IMG/VR virus record: IMGVR_UViG_2875713109_000001
Source of the DNA: a virus
Lineage: Duplodnaviria > Heunggongvirae > Uroviricota > Caudoviricetes
Reading direction: 5' to 3' (one strand)
Length of the DNA: 64,000 nt
The notes beneath the pieces were generated by a model, which was given only the letters and a program-made list of their open reading frames with translations, was not told where the DNA came from and did not search any database. Positions 3,752 to 53,375 of this stretch are shown one piece after another. The position numbers and the translations under genes are program-made. Within the stretch, counting starts at the first letter, position 1. Each line of letters begins with the position of its first letter.

Positions 3752-4032
3752 CCCAGAAAAACAAAAACCGGCGAGAAGTTACCACGAGAACGGAAAGTAA
3801 ACAAGAATACTCCCATTGACTTATATCAAATAATCAACTTTTTATAAGCTATCCCTAACTTATTGTGTATAGCTGAAAAGTCAGAGATAAGTTCACCATC
3901 TGCATTATTTCTTAAGTTAATAGTTTATTGCTAACTTAATTTATGTATCGACTATTGATATCCATCTTAAAGTAACAATATCCCTCTGCATTATTTTTCA
4001 TCACAAATAATACATCTATTGCACTACGCTCA

Positions 4033-4049
4033 CCTGCTCTAATAAATTT
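4033..4049 (+). promoter_or_regulatory. C1 repressor operator-like site upstream of immI
   Basis: cctgctctaataaattt, 15/17 match to P1 C1 operator consensus ATTGCTCTAATAAATTT. Confidence 0.55.
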
Positions 4050-4199
4050 GTATTTTTAAGTCGCGAATGCTATCTTTTCGCATCATATTGACCTTTTAAT
4101 CGTTCAGGCTTATAGTTTCGCCGTCGTAGCAAATTCTGCGACCAGGTTTGACAGCCTGAATGATTGTGCGGACAACCGCAGATTTCCGATATTGCGGTA

Positions 4200-4295
4200 T
4201 TTTTGTGTCCGTTAAACCGCGTTACGCCCAAATTATGGTGGGGCGTGATGGGGAGGCTTCGGCCTGCTGGTTTCACAATCGCCAGTCTGTCAACC
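4200..4295 (+). ncRNA. c4: candidate c4-type antisense RNA (boundaries approximate)
   Basis: Between operator and icd; contains cacaatc complementary to gattgtg repeated at 4162-4168 and at 4346-4352 overlapping the icd Shine-Dalgarno; GC hairpin ggcttcggcc. Confidence 0.35.
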
Positions 4296-4363
4296 CTGTC
4301 ACGTCCTGCCACCTGTTTGACAGCGGGTAGCAGGTTGTTAAACCTGATTGTGAGGCCGTAACT

Positions 4364-4585
4364 ATGGTTAATGCCAATCCTTGCGCACGCCCAGAATTCA
4401 TCTGGCGTTTCTATTCCTGTAAAAAACACCACTATCACTTCGTTATCGCAGCAACTGAAGACGAAGCACGCTCTCAATTGCCTGATGGCCCCTGCATTTT
4501 TACTGCCCGTTTTTCAACTAACTCGCGCAATTCACTTAGTTACTGGAGCCTCCCCTTCTCTGCCGACGTTCAGGGGGGTTTATGA
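4364..4585 (+). CDS. icd: Icd-like cell-division interference protein
   Basis: 73-aa ORF, ATG with SD tgagg 8 nt upstream; stop overlaps ant start (ATGA); position between c4-like region and ant as in P1 immI. Confidence 0.65.
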   Translation: MVNANPCARPEFIWRFYSCKKHHYHFVIAATEDEARSQLPDGPCIFTARFSTNSRNSLSYWSLPFSADVQGGL

Positions 4586-5616
4586 AAACACCTCTCGTCA
4601 CCCGTAATGAAATAGCCGAAGCGATCGCCTTGCATACTGCCTGTATGCCGACACGGGAGATCCCCGGCGCAATTGCTAACTATTTCATGATAACCAGACG
4701 TTTTTATACCCGAACAGATAAGGCTGTGATCAACAGGCTACTGATAGCCGAGATCAGGGATTATTTGATTGAACAAGGACGTCTACGTTACGCAACAGTG
4801 GCAGCAGAAATGAGAAAGGAGGCACATAGAATGACCGGTAATAATTTAAATGTTGAAAAACCAGCACCTGTTGCTTCAGCTACGCCAGCACCAGCCCTGA
4901 ATGTCATCCCCAACACCGGAGACACAATCGACAGCCAAACATTGTTGAAGATGGTCAATGAGGCACGGAAATTATGTAGCGAAAAACCAGTTCGCAACAA
5001 TGATTTCATTGCCAGAGTTAAGGATGAGCTTGAAGGAGAAACCTACGAAATTTTCGTAGGTCAAAAAAACGGCGCAGAAATAGATATTATAACCATGACC
5101 TACAAACAAGCCCTGCGAGTTGCCGCGCGCGAGTCAAAAGCGGTCCGCCGTTCGCTGATCGACAAACTGGAAGAATTGCAGCAGGCAAACTCCCCTACCC
5201 CATCGATCCCCCAAACATTACCAGAAGCTCTACGCCTGGCTGCCGAGTTGGCAGAACAGAAAATGCAGTTGGAACAACAGCTGGTGGCCGCAGCCCCTAA
5301 AGTCGATTTTGCCGACCGGGTATCAGTGGCCAATGGAATCCTGATCGGGAACTTTGCAAAGGTCGTTGGACTTAAGCAAAACGCCCTTTTCTCATGGTTG
5401 CGCCAGAACGGCATTCTCATGGCTTTTGGTGCGCGCAAAAACGTACCGCGCCAACAGTACATCAACGCCGGGTATTTCACAGTGAAAGAAGTGGTGCTGG
5501 ATGATGAAAATGGCTACCAGATACGGCTGACGCCCCAATTAACGGGTAAAGGCCAGCAGTGGTTAACTCGCAAGCTACTTGATGCTGGTTTGTTAAAACC
5601 AGTAGCAATAGGTTAA
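4582..5616 (+). CDS. ant: antirepressor Ant (in-frame internal Met could give an Ant2-like form)
   Basis: 344 aa; C-terminal domain near-identical to the 51376..52491 product and similar to KilA C-terminus; immI position upstream of kilA-repL. Confidence 0.7.
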   Translation: MKTPLVTRNEIAEAIALHTACMPTREIPGAIANYFMITRRFYTRTDKAVINRLLIAEIRDYLIEQGRLRYATVAAEMRKEAHRMTGNNLNVEKPAPVASATPAPALNVIPNTGDTIDSQTLLKMVNEARKLCSEKPVRNNDFIARVKDELEGETYEIFVGQKNGAEIDIITMTYKQALRVAARESKAVRRSLIDKLEELQQANSPTPSIPQTLPEALRLAAELAEQKMQLEQQLVAAAPKVDFADRVSVANGILIGNFAKVVGLKQNALFSWLRQNGILMAFGARKNVPRQQYINAGYFTVKEVVLDDENGYQIRLTPQLTGKGQQWLTRKLLDAGLLKPVAIG

Positions 5617-5628
5617 CAAAAGAAAAAA

Positions 5629-5650
5629 ACCTGCCAGCAAACTGGCAGGT
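5629..5650 (+). terminator. hairpin after ant, weak terminator
   Basis: acctgccag-caaa-ctggcaggt followed by ttct; A-run on 5-prime side. Confidence 0.4.
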
Positions 5651-5694
5651 TTCTGAGCAGATCGTCCAACCCGATCTGGATCGAGTCAGAAAAA

Positions 5695-5711
5695 TTTGCT
5701 CTAATAAATTT
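5695..5711 (+). promoter_or_regulatory. C1 operator-like site upstream of kilA
   Basis: tttgctctaataaattt, 16/17 match to C1 operator consensus. Confidence 0.6.
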
Positions 5712-5780
5712 CGTTTTCTAAGTGCAAAGAATCACCATTTCGAGCTGGTGATTGAAGGTTGATGCAAATTTGGAGAAAAA

Positions 5781-6581
5781 ATGCAACAAACATTCAATGC
5801 GGATATGAATATATCAAACCTTCATCAAAATGTCGATCCTTCAACCACTCTGCCTGTTATTTGTGGTGTTGAAATTACGACCGACCGCGCTGGCCGTTAC
5901 AACCTTAATGCTCTACACAGAGCGAGCGGACTCGGTGCCCATAAAGCGCCAGCTCAATGGCTAAGAACGCTGTCAGCCAAACAGCTCATTGAAGAGCTTG
6001 AAAAAGAAACTATGCAGAATTGCATAGTTTCGTTCGAAGGCCGTGGCGGCGGCACTTTTGCACATGAATTGCTCGCAGTGGAGTACGCAGGTTGGATTTC
6101 TCCCGCGTTTCGGCTGAAGGTAAACCAGACATTTATCGACTATCGAGCTGGAAGATTACAACCTGCTATTCCGCAGAGCCTCCCAGAAGCTCTCCGTTTG
6201 GCTGCTGACCTGGCAGAGCAAAAGCAACGGCTGGAGCAAAAAATGCTGATGGATGCACCTAAAGTCGAATTCGCCGAACGCGTTGCTACCGCCAGCGGGG
6301 TTCTAATCGGCAACTATGCCAAAGTGCTCGGCCTGGGCCAAAACTATCTCTTCACCTGGTTGCGTGATAACGGAATTCTGATCGCAACCGGTGAACGCAG
6401 GAACGTCCCCAAACAAGAATACATATCCCGTGGGTATTTCACCCTTAAAGAAACCGTGATCGATACAAGCAATGGAAGCAGGATTTCTTTCACGACTCGT
6501 ATAACCGGCAAAGGTCAGCAGTGGCTGATGAAGCGATTGCTTGATGCTGGTGTGCTGGTACCTGTCGCGGCAACGCGCTAA
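5781..6581 (+). CDS. kilA: KilA-like protein
   Basis: 266 aa; ATG with SD tggagaaaaa; C-terminal domain homologous to Ant C-terminus; directly precedes repL. Confidence 0.7.
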   Translation: MQQTFNADMNISNLHQNVDPSTTLPVICGVEITTDRAGRYNLNALHRASGLGAHKAPAQWLRTLSAKQLIEELEKETMQNCIVSFEGRGGGTFAHELLAVEYAGWISPAFRLKVNQTFIDYRAGRLQPAIPQSLPEALRLAADLAEQKQRLEQKMLMDAPKVEFAERVATASGVLIGNYAKVLGLGQNYLFTWLRDNGILIATGERRNVPKQEYISRGYFTLKETVIDTSNGSRISFTTRITGKGQQWLMKRLLDAGVLVPVAATR

Positions 6582-6610
6582 CAGACGTAGTAAGAACCAC
6601 CAGCATTGTA

Positions 6611-7456
6611 ATGCTGGCTAAAGTCACTTTCCTGAGCTGTATAACGATGAGCGATTTTACTTTTTCTGGCTATGAATTGGCTTGCTTTGTAACACACTCC
6701 GGTCTATCCCGTAGCGCCGGGCATATCCTGTCGCAATGTGCAAATCTCGCGGCAACAACCAGTGAATACTTCATTCACAAGCCTCACCGCTTGATCGCGG
6801 CAGAAACTGGTTATAGCCAATCAACCGTCGTTCGTGCATTCCGTGAAGCTGTAAACAAAGGAATCCTGTCTGTAGAGATTGTTATCGGCGATCACCGTGA
6901 ACGTCGCGCTAACCTGTACCGGTTTACACCATCCTTTTTGGCCTACGCACAACAAGCCAAAAATGCGCTGATTGAAAGCAAATTAAAGATCTCTTCAGCC
7001 GCAACCAAGGTTAAAGCTGTTCTCGCTAAGACATTGGCTTTATTTAATTTTTTATCCACACCCCCATGTCAAAATGATACCCCCTCCCCCTGTCAGGATG
7101 ACGTGGCAATAAAGAATAAGAAGTCACAAGTTAAAAAAACAAAAAGATCAGTTTCCGGCGGTGCCGGAACGACCAGACTCAAAAAATTGACTTCATGGAT
7201 CGCTGAGGCAAAAGCAAAGGCTGACAATCTGCGGTTATCCAAAAAACGCGCTCAAAAACATGAGTTCAAGCAGAAAGTAGAGGCGGCAGCGCGGAAATAT
7301 GCTTACCTGAAGAACAAGCGTTCTCCTGATATTGACGGGGTATCAAACTTCGATAATTTGCCGCATTGCATGACGGTAAACGAAGCTCTTAATGCGGTTT
7401 TAGCCAAAAATAAAGATAACGAACAATGGGGTATACCGGCAGGATTCAGAGGGTAA
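6611..7456 (+). CDS. repL: lytic replication protein RepL
   Basis: 281-aa ORF immediately downstream of kilA, matching the P1 kilA-repL lytic replicon arrangement. Confidence 0.7.
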   Translation: MLAKVTFLSCITMSDFTFSGYELACFVTHSGLSRSAGHILSQCANLAATTSEYFIHKPHRLIAAETGYSQSTVVRAFREAVNKGILSVEIVIGDHRERRANLYRFTPSFLAYAQQAKNALIESKLKISSAATKVKAVLAKTLALFNFLSTPPCQNDTPSPCQDDVAIKNKKSQVKKTKRSVSGGAGTTRLKKLTSWIAEAKAKADNLRLSKKRAQKHEFKQKVEAAARKYAYLKNKRSPDIDGVSNFDNLPHCMTVNEALNAVLAKNKDNEQWGIPAGFRG

Positions 7457-48120: not shown

Positions 48121-49314
48121 GTGACCTGGGACGATCACAAGAAGAATTTTGCTCGCCTGGCGCGAGATGGTGGTTACACCATCGCACAGTATGCCGCCGA
48201 GTTTAATCTTAACCCTAATACCGCACGTCGTTATCTCCGTGCCTTCAAAGAAGACACCAGGACAGCGGACAGCCGCAAGCCAAATAAGCCAGTCAGGAAG
48301 CCACTAAAAAGCATGATCATTGATCACTCTAATGATCAACATTCCGGTGATCACATTGCGGCTGAAATAGCAGAAAAACAAAGGGTTAATGCCATTGTCA
48401 GTGTCGCAGTCGAGAATGCGAAGCGCCAAAATAAGCGCATAAATGATCGTTCAGATGATCATGACGTGATCACCCGCGCCCACCGGACCTTACGTGATCG
48501 CCTGGAACGCGACACCCTGGATGATGATGGTGAACGCTTTGAATTCGAAGCTGGCGATTACCTGATAGATAACGTTGAAGCGCGGAAGGCCGCGCGCGCT
48601 ATGTTGCGTCGGTCCGGGGCCGATGTTCTGGAAACCACTCTTCTTGAAAAGTCTCTTTCTCATCTCCTTATGCTGGAGAACGCCAGGGATACGTGTATTC
48701 GCCTGGTGCAGGAAATGCGCGATCAGCAAAAAGCCGATGATGAAGGTACTCCGCCTGAATACCGTATCGCGAGCATGCTAAACAGCTGTTCCGCGCAGAT
48801 AAGCAGTCTGATCAACACCATTTACAGCATCCGGAATAACTATCGAAAAGAAAGCCGGGAGGCGGAAAAGCACGCTTTGTCTATGGGGCAAGCTGGCATT
48901 GTTAAGCTGGCATACGAACGAAAGCGTGAAAATAACTGGTCAGTGCTGGAAGCAGCTGAATTTATCGAGGCGCATGGCGGGAAAGTGCCGCCCCTGATGC
49001 TGGAGCAAATCAAAGCCGATCTGCGTGCTCCTAAGACCAATACCGATGATGAGGAAAGGCAAACTGCCGTCGGTGGTCCTTCTCTTGAAGATCTGGACAA
49101 AGTTGCGCGAGAACGGGCCGCCAACCGCCGCGCCGATGCCGCATTGTGGATTGAGCAGCGTAGGGAAGAAATCGCCGATATCGTTGATACAGGCGGTTAT
49201 GGAGATGTTGATACTGAAGGTGTATCAAACGACCCATGGCTGGAACAAGACCTGGACGAAGACGAGGAGGAAGACGAAGAAGTTACCCGCAAGCTATACG
49301 GGGATGATGATTAA
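48121..49314 (+). CDS. pacA: terminase small subunit PacA
   Basis: 397-aa ORF containing the pac hexamer clusters; GTG start with SD aggaag; stop overlaps pacB start. Confidence 0.8.
48310..48475. other. pac: pac packaging site (4 + 3 GATC-containing hexamers)
   Basis: TGATCA/TGATCG hexamers at 48314, 48321, 48333, 48348 and 48444, 48456, 48468, matching the P1 pac layout. Confidence 0.7.
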
Positions 49315-50798
49315 TGGCCAGAAGTTGCGTAACGGATCCACGTTGGCGCGAGCTGGTGGCGCTATATCGTTATGACTGGATTGCGGCCGCTGATGTTTTG
49401 TTCGGCAAAACACCTACCTGGCAGCAGGATCTGATTATTGAGTCTGTGCAGGAACAGGGTAGCAAGACATCTGTTTCGTCTGGTCACGGTACCGGGAAAT
49501 CAGACATGACTTCTATCATGATCATGTTGTTCATAATCATGTATCCCGGTGCCCGAGCCATTATCGTTGCGAACAAAATTCAGCAGGTAATGACCGGTAT
49601 ATTCAAGTACATCAAGATAAACTGGGCTACTGCCACCAGCCGTTTTCCATGGCTTGCTGATTATTTTGTTCTGACAGAAACCGCTTTCTATGAGGTTACT
49701 GGTAAAGGTGTATGGACTGTAGTACCGAAGGGCTTTCGTCTGGGAAGTGAAGAAGCTCTCGCCGGTGAACACGCAGATCATCTTCTGTATATTATCGATG
49801 AAGCCTCCGGTGTCAGTGATAGAGCTTTCGGTATCATCACCGGTGCTCTTACCGGACAGGATAACCGCATCTTATTGCTGTCACAGCCTACACGCCCAAG
49901 CGGCTATTTCTACGATACACACCATAAACTGGCCAAGCGTCCTGGTAACCCTGATGGCGTTTATACGGCGATCACGCTTAACAGTGAGGAATCACCGCTG
50001 GTAACGCCAGCATTTATCAAAATGAAGCTGGCGGAGTACGGCGGGCGTGATAACCCTATGTACATGATTAAGGTACGCGGGCTATTCCCTAAATCACAGG
50101 ATGGCTTCCTTCTTGGACGTGATGAGGTTGAACGTGCAACGCGGCGGAAAGTCAAGATTGCCAAAGGATGGGGCTGGCTTGCATGTGTGGACGTTGCTGG
50201 TGGTACGGGAAGGGATAAGTCCGTTATCAATATCATGATGGTGTCCGGCCAGAGAAATAAACGCCGTGTAATCAACTATCGAATGCTGGAATACACAGAC
50301 GTTACAGAAACGCAGCTTGCCGCCAAAATTTTCGCAGAATGTAATCCTGAGCGATTCCCAAATATCACCATAGCGATAGACGGCGATGGTCTGGGTAAAG
50401 CAACGGCGGATCTGATGTACGAGTATTATGGTATTACCGTACAGCGTATACGCTGGGGTAAAAAGATGCATAGCCGTGAAGATAAGAGCCTGTACTTTGA
50501 TAAACGTGCTTATGCCAACGTTCAAGCCGCAGAGGCCGTAAAATCTGGTCGTATGAGACTGGATAAGGGTAATGAAACTATTGAGGAAGCGTCGAAAATC
50601 CCTGTAGGGATTAACTCCGCAGGTCAATGGAAGGTGATGAGTAAGGAAGATATGAAGAAAAAACTCAACCTGCACTCACCGGACCATTGGGATACATATT
50701 GTTTCGCTATGTTGGCGAACTATGTTCCCCAAGATGAAGTGCTTAGCGTCGAAGACGAAGCGCAGGTTGATGAAGCTCTGGCATGGCTTAATGAGTAA
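49314..50798 (+). CDS. pacB: terminase large subunit PacB
   Basis: 494 aa; Walker A-like SGHGTGKSD; ATG overlaps pacA stop (TAATG). Confidence 0.85.
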
Positions 50799-50801
50799 AA
50801 A

Positions 50802-50818
50802 CTTGCTCTAATAAATTG
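50802..50818 (+). promoter_or_regulatory. C1 operator-like site heading the second immI-like module
   Basis: cttgctctaataaattg, 15/17, 4 bp after pacB stop. Confidence 0.5.
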
Positions 50819-50950
50819 TGTTTTTTGACTGCCGATGTTACATTGAACCTGACCTCTTGCGCCTTGAGGCATTTTCGGTTTATGCTTATCAGGCACCTCA
50901 TTAAAACGGGTGCCGGGATTGGAACCCCGGATAATGCAAAAGGCGACACA

Positions 50951-50972
50951 GACGCCAAAAGCGTCTTTTTTT
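50951..50972 (+). terminator. terminator-like hairpin inside the module 2 leader
   Basis: gacgc-caaaa-gcgtc followed by ttttttt. Confidence 0.45.
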
Positions 50973-50989
50973 GTGTCATGCCATCGCAC

Positions 50990-51100
50990 AGCCATACGTA
51001 GCACATAGCTCCGAGATCAATGGTAGTGCTGGCTGGGCTGCCGAAAGGCAGGCCGGTTCCCTTTTGCGCCGGTAGTTCCAACCCAGTCAGTGCTACCGCC
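50990..51100 (+). ncRNA. candidate c4-type antisense RNA of second module (boundaries approximate)
   Basis: Contains gttccaa and cccttttg complementary to ttggaac and caaaagg, which occur both upstream (50912-50943) and overlapping the icd-like SD (51108-51149). Confidence 0.3.
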
Positions 51101-51157
51101 ATTGAGATTGGAACCTCACGCGGTAGCTCCTTAAGTTAGCAAAAGGAGGCTGCCATT

Positions 51158-51379
51158 GTGGCTACTATCCCTACCCCTGCTCATCCTGAATTTATCTGGC
51201 GCTTTTACTCCTGCCAAAAACGTCACTATCACTTCGTTATTGCACCGACAGAAGATGAGGCACGTTCTCAGCTTCCTGACGCCCCATGTATTTTCTCTGC
51301 CCGTTTTTCCACTGATTCACGCAATTCTCTCAGTTACTGGTGCCTCCCTGTTAACGCTTCTGCTCTGGAGGGGCTATGA
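51158..51379 (+). CDS. Icd-like protein (second copy)
   Basis: 73 aa; PEFIWRFYSC(Q/K)K(R/H)HYHFVIA shared with 4364..4585 product; GTG start with SD aaaaggagg. Confidence 0.6.
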   Translation: MATIPTPAHPEFIWRFYSCQKRHYHFVIAPTEDEARSQLPDAPCIFSARFSTDSRNSLSYWCLPVNASALEGL

Positions 51380-52491
51380 GAACATCATTAGTCACCCGTA
51401 AAGAAATGATCGAGGCAATTGAACAGCACACTGCCTGTATCAGTACCAGGGATATACCTGGCGTTATTGCCAACTACTTCATGATCACCAAACAACTTTA
51501 CCGGAGAAAGGACAAAAACGCGGTTCACCGCATTCTGCTAACCGATATCCGTGAATACCTGCTCGAACAGGGTCATCTGAATTACGCAACCGTCGCAGCC
51601 GAAGCACGCAAGGAGGCACACAGAATGAAAGCAACTAACGTTAAATCAGAAAAAACTCATGCACCTTCAGTTCAGGAATCGGAGCTGGTGGTTGTTCAGA
51701 ATCAGTCTGATGAAATTCCCGTTCTGGAATGGCTGGGAGTGCGTGTAGTGACAACTAAGATCCTTGCTAAGGGGTATGGGACAGATGCGGATAACATCAA
51801 GAAGAACTTTTCCCGTAATGCTGAACGTTTTTGTGAAGGCAAGCATTTCTATAAAGTTATTGGAGATGATTTGAACAATTTGCGGGTGACTTTAAGTAAC
51901 TCACAAAATCCTATCTCTCCTAAAGCCCGCTCACTCATCCTCTGGACGGAACGCGGCGCAGCCCGCCACGCTAAAATGATCGAAACCGATCAGGCATGGG
52001 CATTCTTTGAAAAACTGGAAGACAGCTACTTCCGACAAAAAGAACAGCAACCGATCGCAATCCCCCAGACGCTTCCAGAAGCTCTGCGCCTTGCTGCCGA
52101 ACTGGCTGAACAAAAGCAACTTCTGGAACAGAAAGCCCATCAGCTAAATCAGCAGCTGGTGGCCGCAGCCCCCAAAGTCGATTTTGCCGACCGGGTATCA
52201 GTGGCTAAGGGGATCCTGATTGGGAATTTTGCAAAGGTCGTTGGACTTAAACAAAATGCGCTGTTTGCCTGGTTACGGGAGAACGGCATTCTGATAGCGT
52301 CCGGCGGCCGTAAAAATGTACCGTTCCAGCAGTACATAAACGCCGGATATTTCACAGTGAAAGAAGTGGTGCTGGATGATGAAGAGGGCTACCAGATACG
52401 GCTGACGCCCCAATTAACGGGGAAAGGCCAACAGTGGTTGACGCGTAAACTGCTCGATGCTGGCTTGTTAAAACCGGTGGCGGCTGAATAA
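51376..52491 (+). CDS. antirepressor-like protein (Bro-N-like middle region plus Ant/KilA C-terminal domain)
   Basis: 371 aa; N-terminal about 80 aa and C-terminal about 140 aa homologous to Ant at 4582..5616, middle differs; ATG overlaps icd-like stop. Confidence 0.65.
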   Translation: MRTSLVTRKEMIEAIEQHTACISTRDIPGVIANYFMITKQLYRRKDKNAVHRILLTDIREYLLEQGHLNYATVAAEARKEAHRMKATNVKSEKTHAPSVQESELVVVQNQSDEIPVLEWLGVRVVTTKILAKGYGTDADNIKKNFSRNAERFCEGKHFYKVIGDDLNNLRVTLSNSQNPISPKARSLILWTERGAARHAKMIETDQAWAFFEKLEDSYFRQKEQQPIAIPQTLPEALRLAAELAEQKQLLEQKAHQLNQQLVAAAPKVDFADRVSVAKGILIGNFAKVVGLKQNALFAWLRENGILIASGGRKNVPFQQYINAGYFTVKEVVLDDEEGYQIRLTPQLTGKGQQWLTRKLLDAGLLKPVAAE

Positions 52492-52498
52492 TGGAAGA

Positions 52499-52520
52499 AT
52501 GCCCGGTTGATGCCGGGCAT
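52499..52520. terminator. bidirectional hairpin between ant-like gene and c1
   Basis: atgcccgg-ttgatg-ccgggcat perfect stem between convergent stops. Confidence 0.45.
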
Positions 52521-52523
52521 AAT

Positions 52524-53375
52524 TTATTGCGCGCTTTCGGGGTTGTCGTTTACTGGCTGCCCCTTCTTGGTTTTACGGCTGCGCGTAACTGATGCGGCTG
52601 ACTTAACCTTTTTCTCTTCGCGAGTGATGGCAATTTGTTTTTTTACATTTTCAATATCTGCCAGGCGATATATTTTTGCTTGTGGCCAGCGGTCGCAGAT
52701 GATCGGTTCTATGGAGTCATAAAGGCTAAATTTTGCTTTTTCGAATTCACCGTTGATGATGATTCCATCACGGAGAGTTTCATCGCAGATAAACACGCCA
52801 CACAGCGGTACATGGTAACTAACTGATTTACCATCATTGTAGTTAGGGCTACTGGAGATGTAGTGGACGCGCAGCATTGTTTCGCTAAAGCCGTGTACAC
52901 GCATACGGAATTTTTCATCCTCCGGGTACTGCCTCATTAGCTCTTTTGTTGCTTCCAGGTTCTCTATGTATTTCGCACTGTGCTCATTGATCCCCGCGCT
53001 TTTTTGGATGCGAATGTCCTTATCAATCAGATGAATAATGCGGCCAGCGGTCATGTTGACGCTGTTCACAGCTTCTGTCTGATAAGTTGTAACCTTGCGC
53101 ACACCGCGAAGGATGTTAGGCACTGGATATAAAATAGTCTTTGGGATATTGAGGTCTGGGTACTGTTCCAGTTCCCGCGCCATTAAAGTCCATTTATCAA
53201 TTTCAGCCTGAATGCTGTCAGTTTCTTTGAACGGTAGAACGACAACCGGGCGTACAGGACGACCGTCGCTGGCTGTATCAACGTGTTGGGCGCGTGCAAC
53301 AGCTTTTTTTAGAAAGAGATCCCTGAAGCTGACGAACTCCTGGTACAGTTGTTCGCCGTAGACATAATTTATCAT
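52524..53375 (-). CDS. c1: C1 repressor of lysis
   Basis: 283-aa ORF; strong SD ggaggag; position next to coi and loxP and surrounded by operator copies, as P1 immC. Confidence 0.8.
   Translation of the reverse strand: MINYVYGEQLYQEFVSFRDLFLKKAVARAQHVDTASDGRPVRPVVVLPFKETDSIQAEIDKWTLMARELEQYPDLNIPKTILYPVPNILRGVRKVTTYQTEAVNSVNMTAGRIIHLIDKDIRIQKSAGINEHSAKYIENLEATKELMRQYPEDEKFRMRVHGFSETMLRVHYISSSPNYNDGKSVSYHVPLCGVFICDETLRDGIIINGEFEKAKFSLYDSIEPIICDRWPQAKIYRLADIENVKKQIAITREEKKVKSAASVTRSRKTKKGQPVNDNPESAQ

Follow-up and report, generated by a model that had tools for sequence, protein, structure and literature searches.

A direct repeat in a P1-like phage-plasmid encodes the KilAC domain of three regulators, its second copy lying in an extra immI-type module

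The DNA analysed here (IMG/VR record IMGVR_UViG_2875713109_000001, a stretch of 64,000 nucleotides referred to as the window) comes from a P1-like phage-plasmid, with RCS47 as its nearest relative according to DNA comparison. It carries a direct repeat, one copy of which lies in the antirepressor gene ant and the other in an ant-like gene. The repeat is very probably the sequence coding for the KilAC domain of three regulators (Ant, the Ant-like protein and KilA), with its second copy in an accessory immI-type module, and it is best described as a point of crossover among relatives, not as a demonstrable source of 47-kb deletions. As such, the finding is an ordinary one, namely the reuse of one domain by paralogous regulators.

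The two copies are found in regions with different neighbours. Positions 4000–6700, which include the canonical immI module upstream of kilA (module 1), match phage RCS47 at 98.3% identity and both P1 and P7 at 96%, the counterpart in these three genomes being annotated c4-icd-ant1/ant2-kilA-repL. Positions 50700–52600, which include the additional module (module 2), share 99% identity with plasmid NZ_CP062902 and 95% with RCS47, in which pacB and c1 flank an "ant" gene. The features of both regions are collected in Table 1.

Table 1. Features of the two immI-type modules and their neighbours in the window, in order of position
Feature	Position	Strand	Basis
C1 operator (Op51/Oc4 equivalent), module 1	4033–4049	+	2 mismatches to ATTGCTCTAATAAATTT; C1 operator annotated at the equivalent position of P1 and P7
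a1/b1 target element, module 1	4110–4162	+	Rfam RF03163 c4-a1b1, 55.2 bits (gathering score 46.7)
a1 TTGACAG and b1 GATTGTG, module 1	4148–4154; 4162–4168	+	Exact complementarity to C4 loops
C4 antisense RNA, module 1	4231–4316	+	Rfam RF01695, 68.4 bits (gathering score 45)
a2 and b2, module 1	4317–4323; 4346–4353	+	Exact complementarity to C4 loops; same sites annotated in P1
icd (73 aa)	4364–4585	+	ORF; annotated icd in P1, P7 and RCS47 at 96–98% DNA identity
ant (Ant1, 344 aa)	4582–5616	+	ORF, KilAC domain, P1 annotation
Repeat copy 1: linker helix and KilAC coding region of ant	5206–5616	+	blastn, repeat search, PF03374
C1 operator (Op53 equivalent), upstream of kilA-repL	5695–5711	+	1 mismatch to consensus; P1 annotation
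kilA (266 aa), with third, diverged repeat copy at about 6165–6581	5781–6581	+	Pfam; 64–67% DNA identity to the other copies
pacB, left neighbour of module 2	49314–50798	+	ORF; annotated pacB in RCS47 and P1
C1-operator-like site CTTGCTCTAATAAATTG, module 2 (putative)	50802–50818	+	2 mismatches, equal in quality to Op51; 4 bp past pacB stop
isrK-like leader RNA, module 2	50893–50971	+	Rfam RF01394, 62.4 bits (gathering score 50)
a1 TTGGAAC and b1 GCAAAAGG, module 2	50919–50925; 50936–50943	+	Complementarity to C4 loops; inside isrK-like leader
C4 antisense RNA, module 2	51016–51103	+	Rfam RF01695, 76.7 bits; folds like P1 C4
a2 TTGGAAC and b2 GCAAAAGG, module 2	51108–51114; 51139–51146	+	Exact complementarity to C4 loops
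icd-like (73 aa, GTG start)	51158–51379	+	ORF; alignment to icd; "Icd-like" in plasmid relatives
ant-like (371 aa): Ant1-type N-terminus, ORF6N middle (nt 51724–51978), KilAC C-terminus	51376–52491	+	ORF, Pfam
Repeat copy 2: linker helix (7-codon insertion) and KilAC coding region of ant-like	52060–52491	+	blastn, repeat search
Hairpin between convergent ant-like and c1, right end of module 2	52499–52520	.	Terminator-like scan; P1 pacB-c1 spacer comparison
c1 repressor gene, right neighbour of module 2	52524–53375	-	ORF; annotated c1 in RCS47 and P1

In the preliminary description of this DNA, a near-identical direct repeat had been placed at about 5190–5616 and 52060–52491. The repeat is real and lies close to these limits: blastn gives a match between 5206–5606 and 52060–52481, with 80.8% identity over 422 columns, one 21-bp indel and an E-value of 4.7e-116. 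The match is on the same strand, so the copies do have the same orientation, but bases 5190–5205 fall outside it. The DNA is not near-identical either, as the identity ranges from 80.8 to 86.4%, 103 alignment columns differ between the copies and dS is 0.70. The starts of the copies are separated by 46,854 bp. Beyond the indel, 332 bp align without gaps (5275–5606 and 52150–52481) at 86.4% identity, the first 48 bp of the repeat are 81% identical, and the longest exact runs measure 36, 35, 32, 23 and 20 bp. A repeat-family search returned 86% identity over 300 nt (family D1) and included kilA as a third copy (64%). The blastn matches of kilA, which span about 270–310 bp, reach 67% DNA identity to ant (6183–6452) and 64% to the ant-like gene (6165–6452), which bears out the earlier statement that the kilA copy is the more diverged one.

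The C-terminal 139 residues of Ant and the Ant-like protein are 89% identical, and their KilAC parts 90%. Both proteins thus end in the same KilAC domain, as had been described, but at 89–90% identity "almost identical" is too strong a term, and the 80.8% identity of the pairwise DNA alignment lies below that of the protein. Within the two C-termini, identity is 60–63% at codon position 3 compared to 93–95% at positions 1 and 2, and a block of 113 KilAC codons gives dN=0.055, dS=0.70 and dN/dS=0.078. Minus-strand ORFs inside the repeat (5100–5480 and 52149–52355) were considered as genes and rejected, since the substitution pattern fits the plus-strand frame only. The repeat is real and far beyond chance, and it is an old, protein-constrained paralogy, not a near-identical duplicate. 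Purifying selection on the protein would be what keeps its copies similar.

All three proteins carry PF03374 (KilAC) at their C-terminus, with scores of 106.3 bits in Ant (aa 231–333), 107.7 bits in the Ant-like protein (aa 259–360) and 112.2 bits in KilA (aa 152–254), far above the curated whole-protein cutoff of 25.3 bits. KilA combines this domain with KilA-N (PF04383), and the middle of the Ant-like protein contains ORF6N (PF10543; aa 117–201, 65.9 bits, cutoff 27.8). The Pfam search returned no match for the middle domain of Ant, from which ORF6N is absent. At the DNA level, the repeat begins about 66 nt ahead of the Pfam domain, within a common linker (IPQTLPEALRLAAELAEQK). KilAC has been described as a constant C-terminus found with alternating N-terminal domains in AriS-like proteins, its role in Ant being called unclear, in a study which gives Iyer et al. 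2002 as the source for the KilAC/ANT domain family (PMC9043618). The three proteins of the window follow the pattern of this family, in that they share the C-terminus behind differing N-terminal or middle domains. They differ from it in that the two copies in ant and ant-like also have in common an Ant1-type N-terminal extension and the whole upstream regulatory cassette, which indicates paralogy of the module and not of the domain alone. We propose that the sequence coding for the linker helix and KilAC was reused by Ant, the second Ant and KilA, and that it would not go back to a recent duplication.

A second homologous block (4391–4834 and 51185–51628; family D2), with 71.4% identity in blastn, spans icd and ant up to about codon 85. 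Neither this upstream block nor the doubling of the whole immI regulatory module had been noticed in the preliminary description. The N-termini of the ant genes had instead been called mosaic, which does not hold: residues 1–95 of the two proteins are homologous (61% amino acid identity), and it is the middle that differs, with ORF6N in one and no Pfam match in the other. According to these alignments, ant and ant-like are alike at both ends and unlike only in the middle. The ends also differ in age, with a dS of 1.8–2.0 for icd and the 5' parts of ant compared to 0.70 for the KilAC pair. The 3' ends therefore share a younger common ancestor, which in turn means that the module types must have undergone exchange or conversion with each other at least once.

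Judged by the parts recognised around it, the second ant gene belongs to a complete extra immI-type module (50799–52523), which exactly takes the place of the 24 bp that separate the convergent genes pacB and c1 in P1. The second copy of the repeat would accordingly be a component of an accessory module inserted in the pacB-c1 spacer, with the predicted order C1-operator-like site, isrK-like leader (with a1/b1), C4, a2/b2, icd-like and a nested Ant1/Ant2-type gene. C1-operator-like sites number 15 in the window, against 0.37 expected. In a simple promoter scan of module 2, the sequence ahead of the isrK-like element gave no good match to sigma-70, and the module's operator and promoter are both putative, being proposed from their resemblance to the consensus. 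The terminator scan places a hairpin followed by a T-run at 50950–50966, within the isrK-like leader. The b2 site overlaps the AAGGAGG ribosome-binding site of icd-like, and that of module 1 overlaps the ribosome-binding site of icd. In each module, the stop of the short ORF overlaps the start of the antirepressor gene (ATGA at 4582 and at 51376) and a nested Ant2-type start is present (at 4831 in ant and 51625 in ant-like). In either gene this start is the ATG at codon 84, preceded by AAGGAGG, and ant2 of P1 starts at the same codon.

The ORFs of module 2 are intact in the window, and their dN/dS of 0.08–0.15 indicates purifying selection. Of 803 matching plasmid records, 299 contain the module with both of its flanks. 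Many P1-like plasmids, P1 and P7 among them, are without it. An "ant" insertion of the RCS47 type, as well as icd/ant homologues in another variable region, is noted in PMC6906374, where the passage that mentions the pacB-c1 insertion gives no description of a C4 RNA, its targets or an operator. A limited literature search found no paper analysing the C4 specificity of module 2. The module is nonetheless of a known kind, already in databases and briefly mentioned in print.

The mechanism of immI in P1 and P7 is established and summarised in the annotation of the P1 record, according to which Ant1 and Ant2 bind and inactivate the C1 repressor. By analogy with it, each C4 RNA of the window would block the translation of its own icd-ant message through two-loop pairing. 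Comparison of folds and loops with P1 and P7 identifies the a' loop of the module 1 C4 (CTGTCAA) as P1 type and its b' loop (CACAATC) as P7 type, and the two are exactly complementary to TTGACAG (4148 and 4317) and GATTGTG(A) (4162 and 4346), respectively. The loops of the module 2 C4 are GTTCCAA (a') and CCTTTTGC (b'). Both RNAs adopt the fold of the P1 C4, with two loops exposed. Each C4 thus has exact 7–8-nt complements at all four sites of its own module, while a comparison of both modules found no comparable complementarity between the loops of one and the targets of the other. For cognate pairs, the predicted duplex energies lie between −8.7 and −13.1 kcal/mol, with −9.7 to −13.1 kcal/mol in module 2, compared to −4.1 to −7.0 kcal/mol for non-cognate ones. 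Since the loop sequences of the two RNAs are unrelated, each should control its own antirepressor only.

The scaffold of the module 2 C4 was found at 70 IMG/VR loci, where two a' alleles (GTTCCAA and GTCTCAA) and two b' alleles (CCTTTTGC and CCTTTGAC) occur in every one of the four possible combinations. The cognate target is matched at 68 of the 70 loci for a1, and at 70 of 70 for each of b1, a2 and b2. Compared to the window, the module of RCS47 has both C4 loops changed, with compensatory changes in all four targets. The antisense mechanism of P1 and P7 predicts such co-variation of loops and targets. The C4 RNAs that reside together in pP136-6 are distinguished by one loop only, so that full orthogonality is not guaranteed in every genome.

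Recombination between the repeat copies had also been proposed, and related genomes do contain hybrid genes. In the complete examples examined, the KilAC 3' part goes with the locus rather than the module, being 98.5–98.8% type 1 upstream of kilA despite a C4, icd, N-terminus and ORF6N middle of type 2 (L005 and L008) and 93–95% type 2 upstream of c1 despite a type-1-like middle (L007). In L005 and L008, the type switches at about 5205–5232, which is the 5' edge of the repeat. In plasmid NZ_CP069570 (L006), which encodes an Ant of 469 aa with both middle domains present, ant switches from type 2 to type 1 inside the repeat, in the interval 5278–5334, with 44 of 50 diagnostic sites of type 2 on the 5' side and 50 of 53 of type 1 on the 3' side. 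This interval covers the 20- and 32-bp identical runs, and about 19 of the records listed match at the coverage (93%) and identity (87–88%) of this plasmid. Further switches are found in the conserved icd core (L006, L010 and L057). As the breakpoints lie in or at the edge of conserved segments, these segments have acted as crossover points. We suggest that KilAC and the icd/ant 5' region have been homologous crossover points among P1-like plasmids over evolutionary time, through which regulatory RNA, middle domain and C-terminus would have been reassorted. A few short patches in other second-slot alleles resemble the first-slot type.

The loss of the 47 kb between the copies was searched for separately. 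Both products of a crossover were simulated, with the crossover set in the 36-bp identical run, and compared with 72,556 plasmid records. Neither of the simulated 47-kb deletion junctions is spanned by any of these records, and the best coverage obtained (84% and 82%) corresponds to the parental arrangement. Short chimeric queries, each joining the middle of one ant gene to the downstream flank of the other, retrieved 3 and 39 records, which are module swaps at an intact locus and not 47-kb deletions. Related genomes therefore bear witness to recombination in the form of hybrid junctions (one inside the repeat, within 5278–5334, and others at its 5' edge) but not of deletion junctions, and the comparison supports the recombination idea for evolutionary module shuffling only. 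Exchange within the molecule may take place at low frequency in this genome.

Several shortened relatives were inspected as well. The truncated second copies of phi456 and pMTY9754 adjoin IS1, and the remnant in pCD74-2-1 comes after pdcB and has no homology to ant. The 35-kb plasmid CP088431 was rejected as a deletion product, as it is a truncated P1-like plasmid in which the normal upstream neighbours of immI are retained. A draft IMG/VR contig (L057) runs from pacB through a hybrid immI to kilA-repL, with the crossover in the icd/ant 5' part. Its join is absent from all plasmid records searched, and no complete plasmid has it. The two modules of pP136-6 are nearly identical over about 0.4 kb in their 5' part, and in genomes of this type a false assembly join is possible as a result. 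The contig, being a draft assembly with a join seen in no complete plasmid, was set aside as an unproven deletion circle.

These data bear on three other ways in which the repeat could be explained. If it were an active substrate for RecA, splitting the roughly 97-kb plasmid into two circles or deleting 47 kb, the element would be structurally unstable, which the exact runs of 32–36 bp and the hybrid junctions in relatives could suggest, together with the L057 join, as it resembles a deletion circle with the crossover in the icd/ant 5' part. However, this join comes from a draft assembly, a shared 5' region like that of pP136-6 can produce a false connection, it is just as absent from the 72,556 plasmid records as the simulated junctions, and the deletions observed beside the second copy abut IS1. 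Going by the gene order of P1, moreover, one circle would carry c1 and the tail genes and the other the replicon, head and pac genes, leaving either deletion product without essential functions. We consider such instability very unlikely.

It is highly improbable that module 2 is a decaying, functionless remnant of an old insertion and the repeat its leftover homology. Truncated relatives do exist, IS1-flanked ones among them (phi456, pMTY9754, pCD74-2-1), and the module is absent from many P1-like plasmids including P1 and P7, but the ORFs of the window are intact, with their stop/start overlaps and conserved internal start, dN/dS is 0.08–0.15, the C4 loops co-vary with all four targets across the 70 loci, and about 300 plasmid records retain the module. 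As for a recent segmental duplication, or copies held near-identical by ongoing gene conversion within the genome, the DNA identity of 81–86% and the dS of 0.70 make this extremely improbable, even though the copies have the same orientation and 90% protein identity, dS is lower for the KilAC pair than for the 5' parts, and short first-slot-type patches occur in other second-slot alleles. A recent duplication would not account for middle domains that are unrelated, and conversion is at odds with each copy being 93–99% identical to the copy at the same locus elsewhere and only about 81% to its partner in the genome.

The reading of the repeat as a KilAC-coding sequence shared between paralogous immI-type modules can be set against known systems. 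Module 1 equals the immI region of P1 and P7 at 96–98% DNA identity. Module 2 is like that region in the order of its parts, the fold of C4, the two-loop pairing to four targets, the position of b2 over the icd ribosome-binding site, the icd/ant overlap, the Ant2-type start and the KilAC domain. It is unlike it in its location between pacB and c1 instead of upstream of kilA, in its unrelated C4 loops, in having a leader which by Rfam score is of isrK type and not of c4-a1b1 type, and in the ORF6N middle of its Ant, and its function is putative. RCS47, pTZ20_1P and other P1-like plasmids have the same "ant" gene at the same pacB-c1 locus, although the module 2 C4 loops of RCS47 differ from those of the window in both a' and b'.

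Two further systems share some of these parts. In the isrK-orf45-anrP region of Gifsy-1 from Salmonella, an isrK leader is located upstream of an antirepressor gene, and its short RNA pairs with the downstream message and activates the translation of the antirepressor in trans (PMC4825925). Module 2 resembles this arrangement in its isrK-type leader with a terminator of its own, its short ORF and its antirepressor gene; unlike in Gifsy-1, this short ORF is icd-like and is separated from the leader by a C4 RNA. The record of phage D6 contains two icd-plus-antirepressor loci, one for each C4/icd type of the window. In contrast to the window, the D6 antirepressors are annotated as Roi-like and Rha/Roi/KilA-like, and the loci are placed elsewhere. 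A second antisense-RNA/icd region has also been reported in a D6-like plasmid (PMC6799933).

Short-read assemblies of P1-like plasmids, a group monitored for its carriage of ESBL and other resistance genes, can be misjoined at repeats of this kind, in particular at the near-identical 5' parts that the immI modules of some relatives share. Among these results, only the orthogonal, combinatorial C4 keys may merit follow-up. We suggest, tentatively, that P1- and D6-like phage-plasmids could routinely stack two non-cross-reacting C4 modules with interchangeable loop alleles, amounting to a two-key code of immunity and anti-immunity. If this were true, the immunity of a lysogen would cover only superinfecting relatives with C4 keys that the lysogen has too, induction of the resident by an incoming phage would proceed via whichever Ant escapes repression, and keys and effectors would reassort through the conserved icd and KilAC segments as linkers. 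The C4 loops of the paired modules may then be read as a sequence-based prediction of mutual immunity and induction among P1-like phage-plasmids, which bears on their coexistence and spread.

Among the IMG/VR loci compared with the module-2 C4 gene of the window at 51016-51103 (L017-L086), the same C4 scaffold carries one of two a' alleles and one of two b' alleles in its loops, and all four possible combinations occur (in 27, 19, 17 and 7 loci). Across these loci the loop alleles and their four target sites change together almost without exception. This, together with the occurrence of every combination, suggests that the module-2 loops form a combinatorial immunity code. The C4 RNA of the window's canonical immI module has the a' loop of P1 (CTGTCAA) and the b' loop of P7 (CACAATC), and is as such a hybrid of both classical specificities; all four targets of this module fit the hybrid combination.

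Related plasmids pair and place such modules differently. In pP136-6 (NZ_CP080229; L087 1097, L088 1409), the module-2 C4 scaffold is found in both slots, the two RNAs having identical b' loops and differing in only one key, the a' loop (GTTCCAA vs GTCTCAA). The 5' parts of the two modules are nearly identical over about 0.4 kb. In p321-pO111 (NZ_CP076303), the pacB-c1 slot is empty, a module-2-type C4 sits in the canonical slot, and a further immI-type module occupies a third insertion site, behind the mat gene, where the C4 carries a new b' loop, CATGTAC, on the P1 scaffold. In the NCBI annotation of related plasmids, the C4 RNA gene is overlapped by a 39-codon CDS, probably because the RNA has been misannotated as a protein gene.

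Coordinates of features in the window and in related loci
Feature	Location	Content or annotation
Canonical immI C4	window 4231-4316	
Post-mat module, p321-pO111	L010 40480-42067	c4-a1b1 leader, P1-scaffold C4, icd, ORF6N-type Ant
CDS on C4	L005 4215-4334, L008 3392-3511 and equivalents; window ~51016-51140	NCBI: 'ash family protein'
KilAC-only ORF, phi456	L002 4031-4363	
KilAC-only ORF, pMTY9754	L004 4256-4588	
KilAC-only ORF, pCD74-2-1	L003 3924-4298	
Joined locus, IMGVR_UViG_2778261639_000014	L057 7194-9660	pacB, module-2 leader and C4, first-type icd 3' end, ant, kilA-repL
469-aa Ant, NZ_CP069570	L006 4569-5978	P1-type middle region and ORF6N in tandem, then hybrid KilAC
D6 antirepressor behind module-2-type C4/icd	L015 3267-4423	record: Rha/Roi/KilA-like
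C1-operator-like sites	window, including 20865, 24387, 40389, 53934, 54017	
Three tRNA genes	window 25070-25220 and 27028-27100	
sok RNA match downstream of repL	L009 41336-41510, L006 8126-8300, L008 6988-7162	

The short KilAC-only ORFs adjoining c1 in three related loci, one of which is labelled 'Ant2', are what truncation has left of the second ant gene. Those of phi456 and pMTY9754 adjoin IS1 copies that also removed lpa-pacA-pacB; no IS1 lies beside the remnant of pCD74-2-1. The 15 window sites matching the C1 operator consensus with at most three mismatches (0.37 expected) are consistent with a C1 regulon spread over the genome, as is typical of P1.

The draft contig L057 joins pacB and the module-2 C4 to the first-type ant and kilA-repL, an arrangement found in no complete plasmid. 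This would be either a real deletion or rearrangement of about 47 kb, with the crossover in icd or the 5' part of ant, or an assembly join via the shared region. The Ant of NZ_CP069570 combines both types of middle region, and its PGAP annotation covers only the last 272 codons. Matches to the sok antitoxin RNA were obtained in related plasmids and none within the window. The three tRNA genes of the window have counterparts in P1-like genomes.

In L029, L030, about 20 more IMG/VR loci and phage D6 (L015), an antirepressor of another kind, about 310 aa long (MNLSISQKATMT...), lies behind a C4 with the module-2 scaffold and an icd of 71 aa. Since the same scaffold and icd precede a different antirepressor, the module-2 regulatory cassette is common to different effector types and phage groups.
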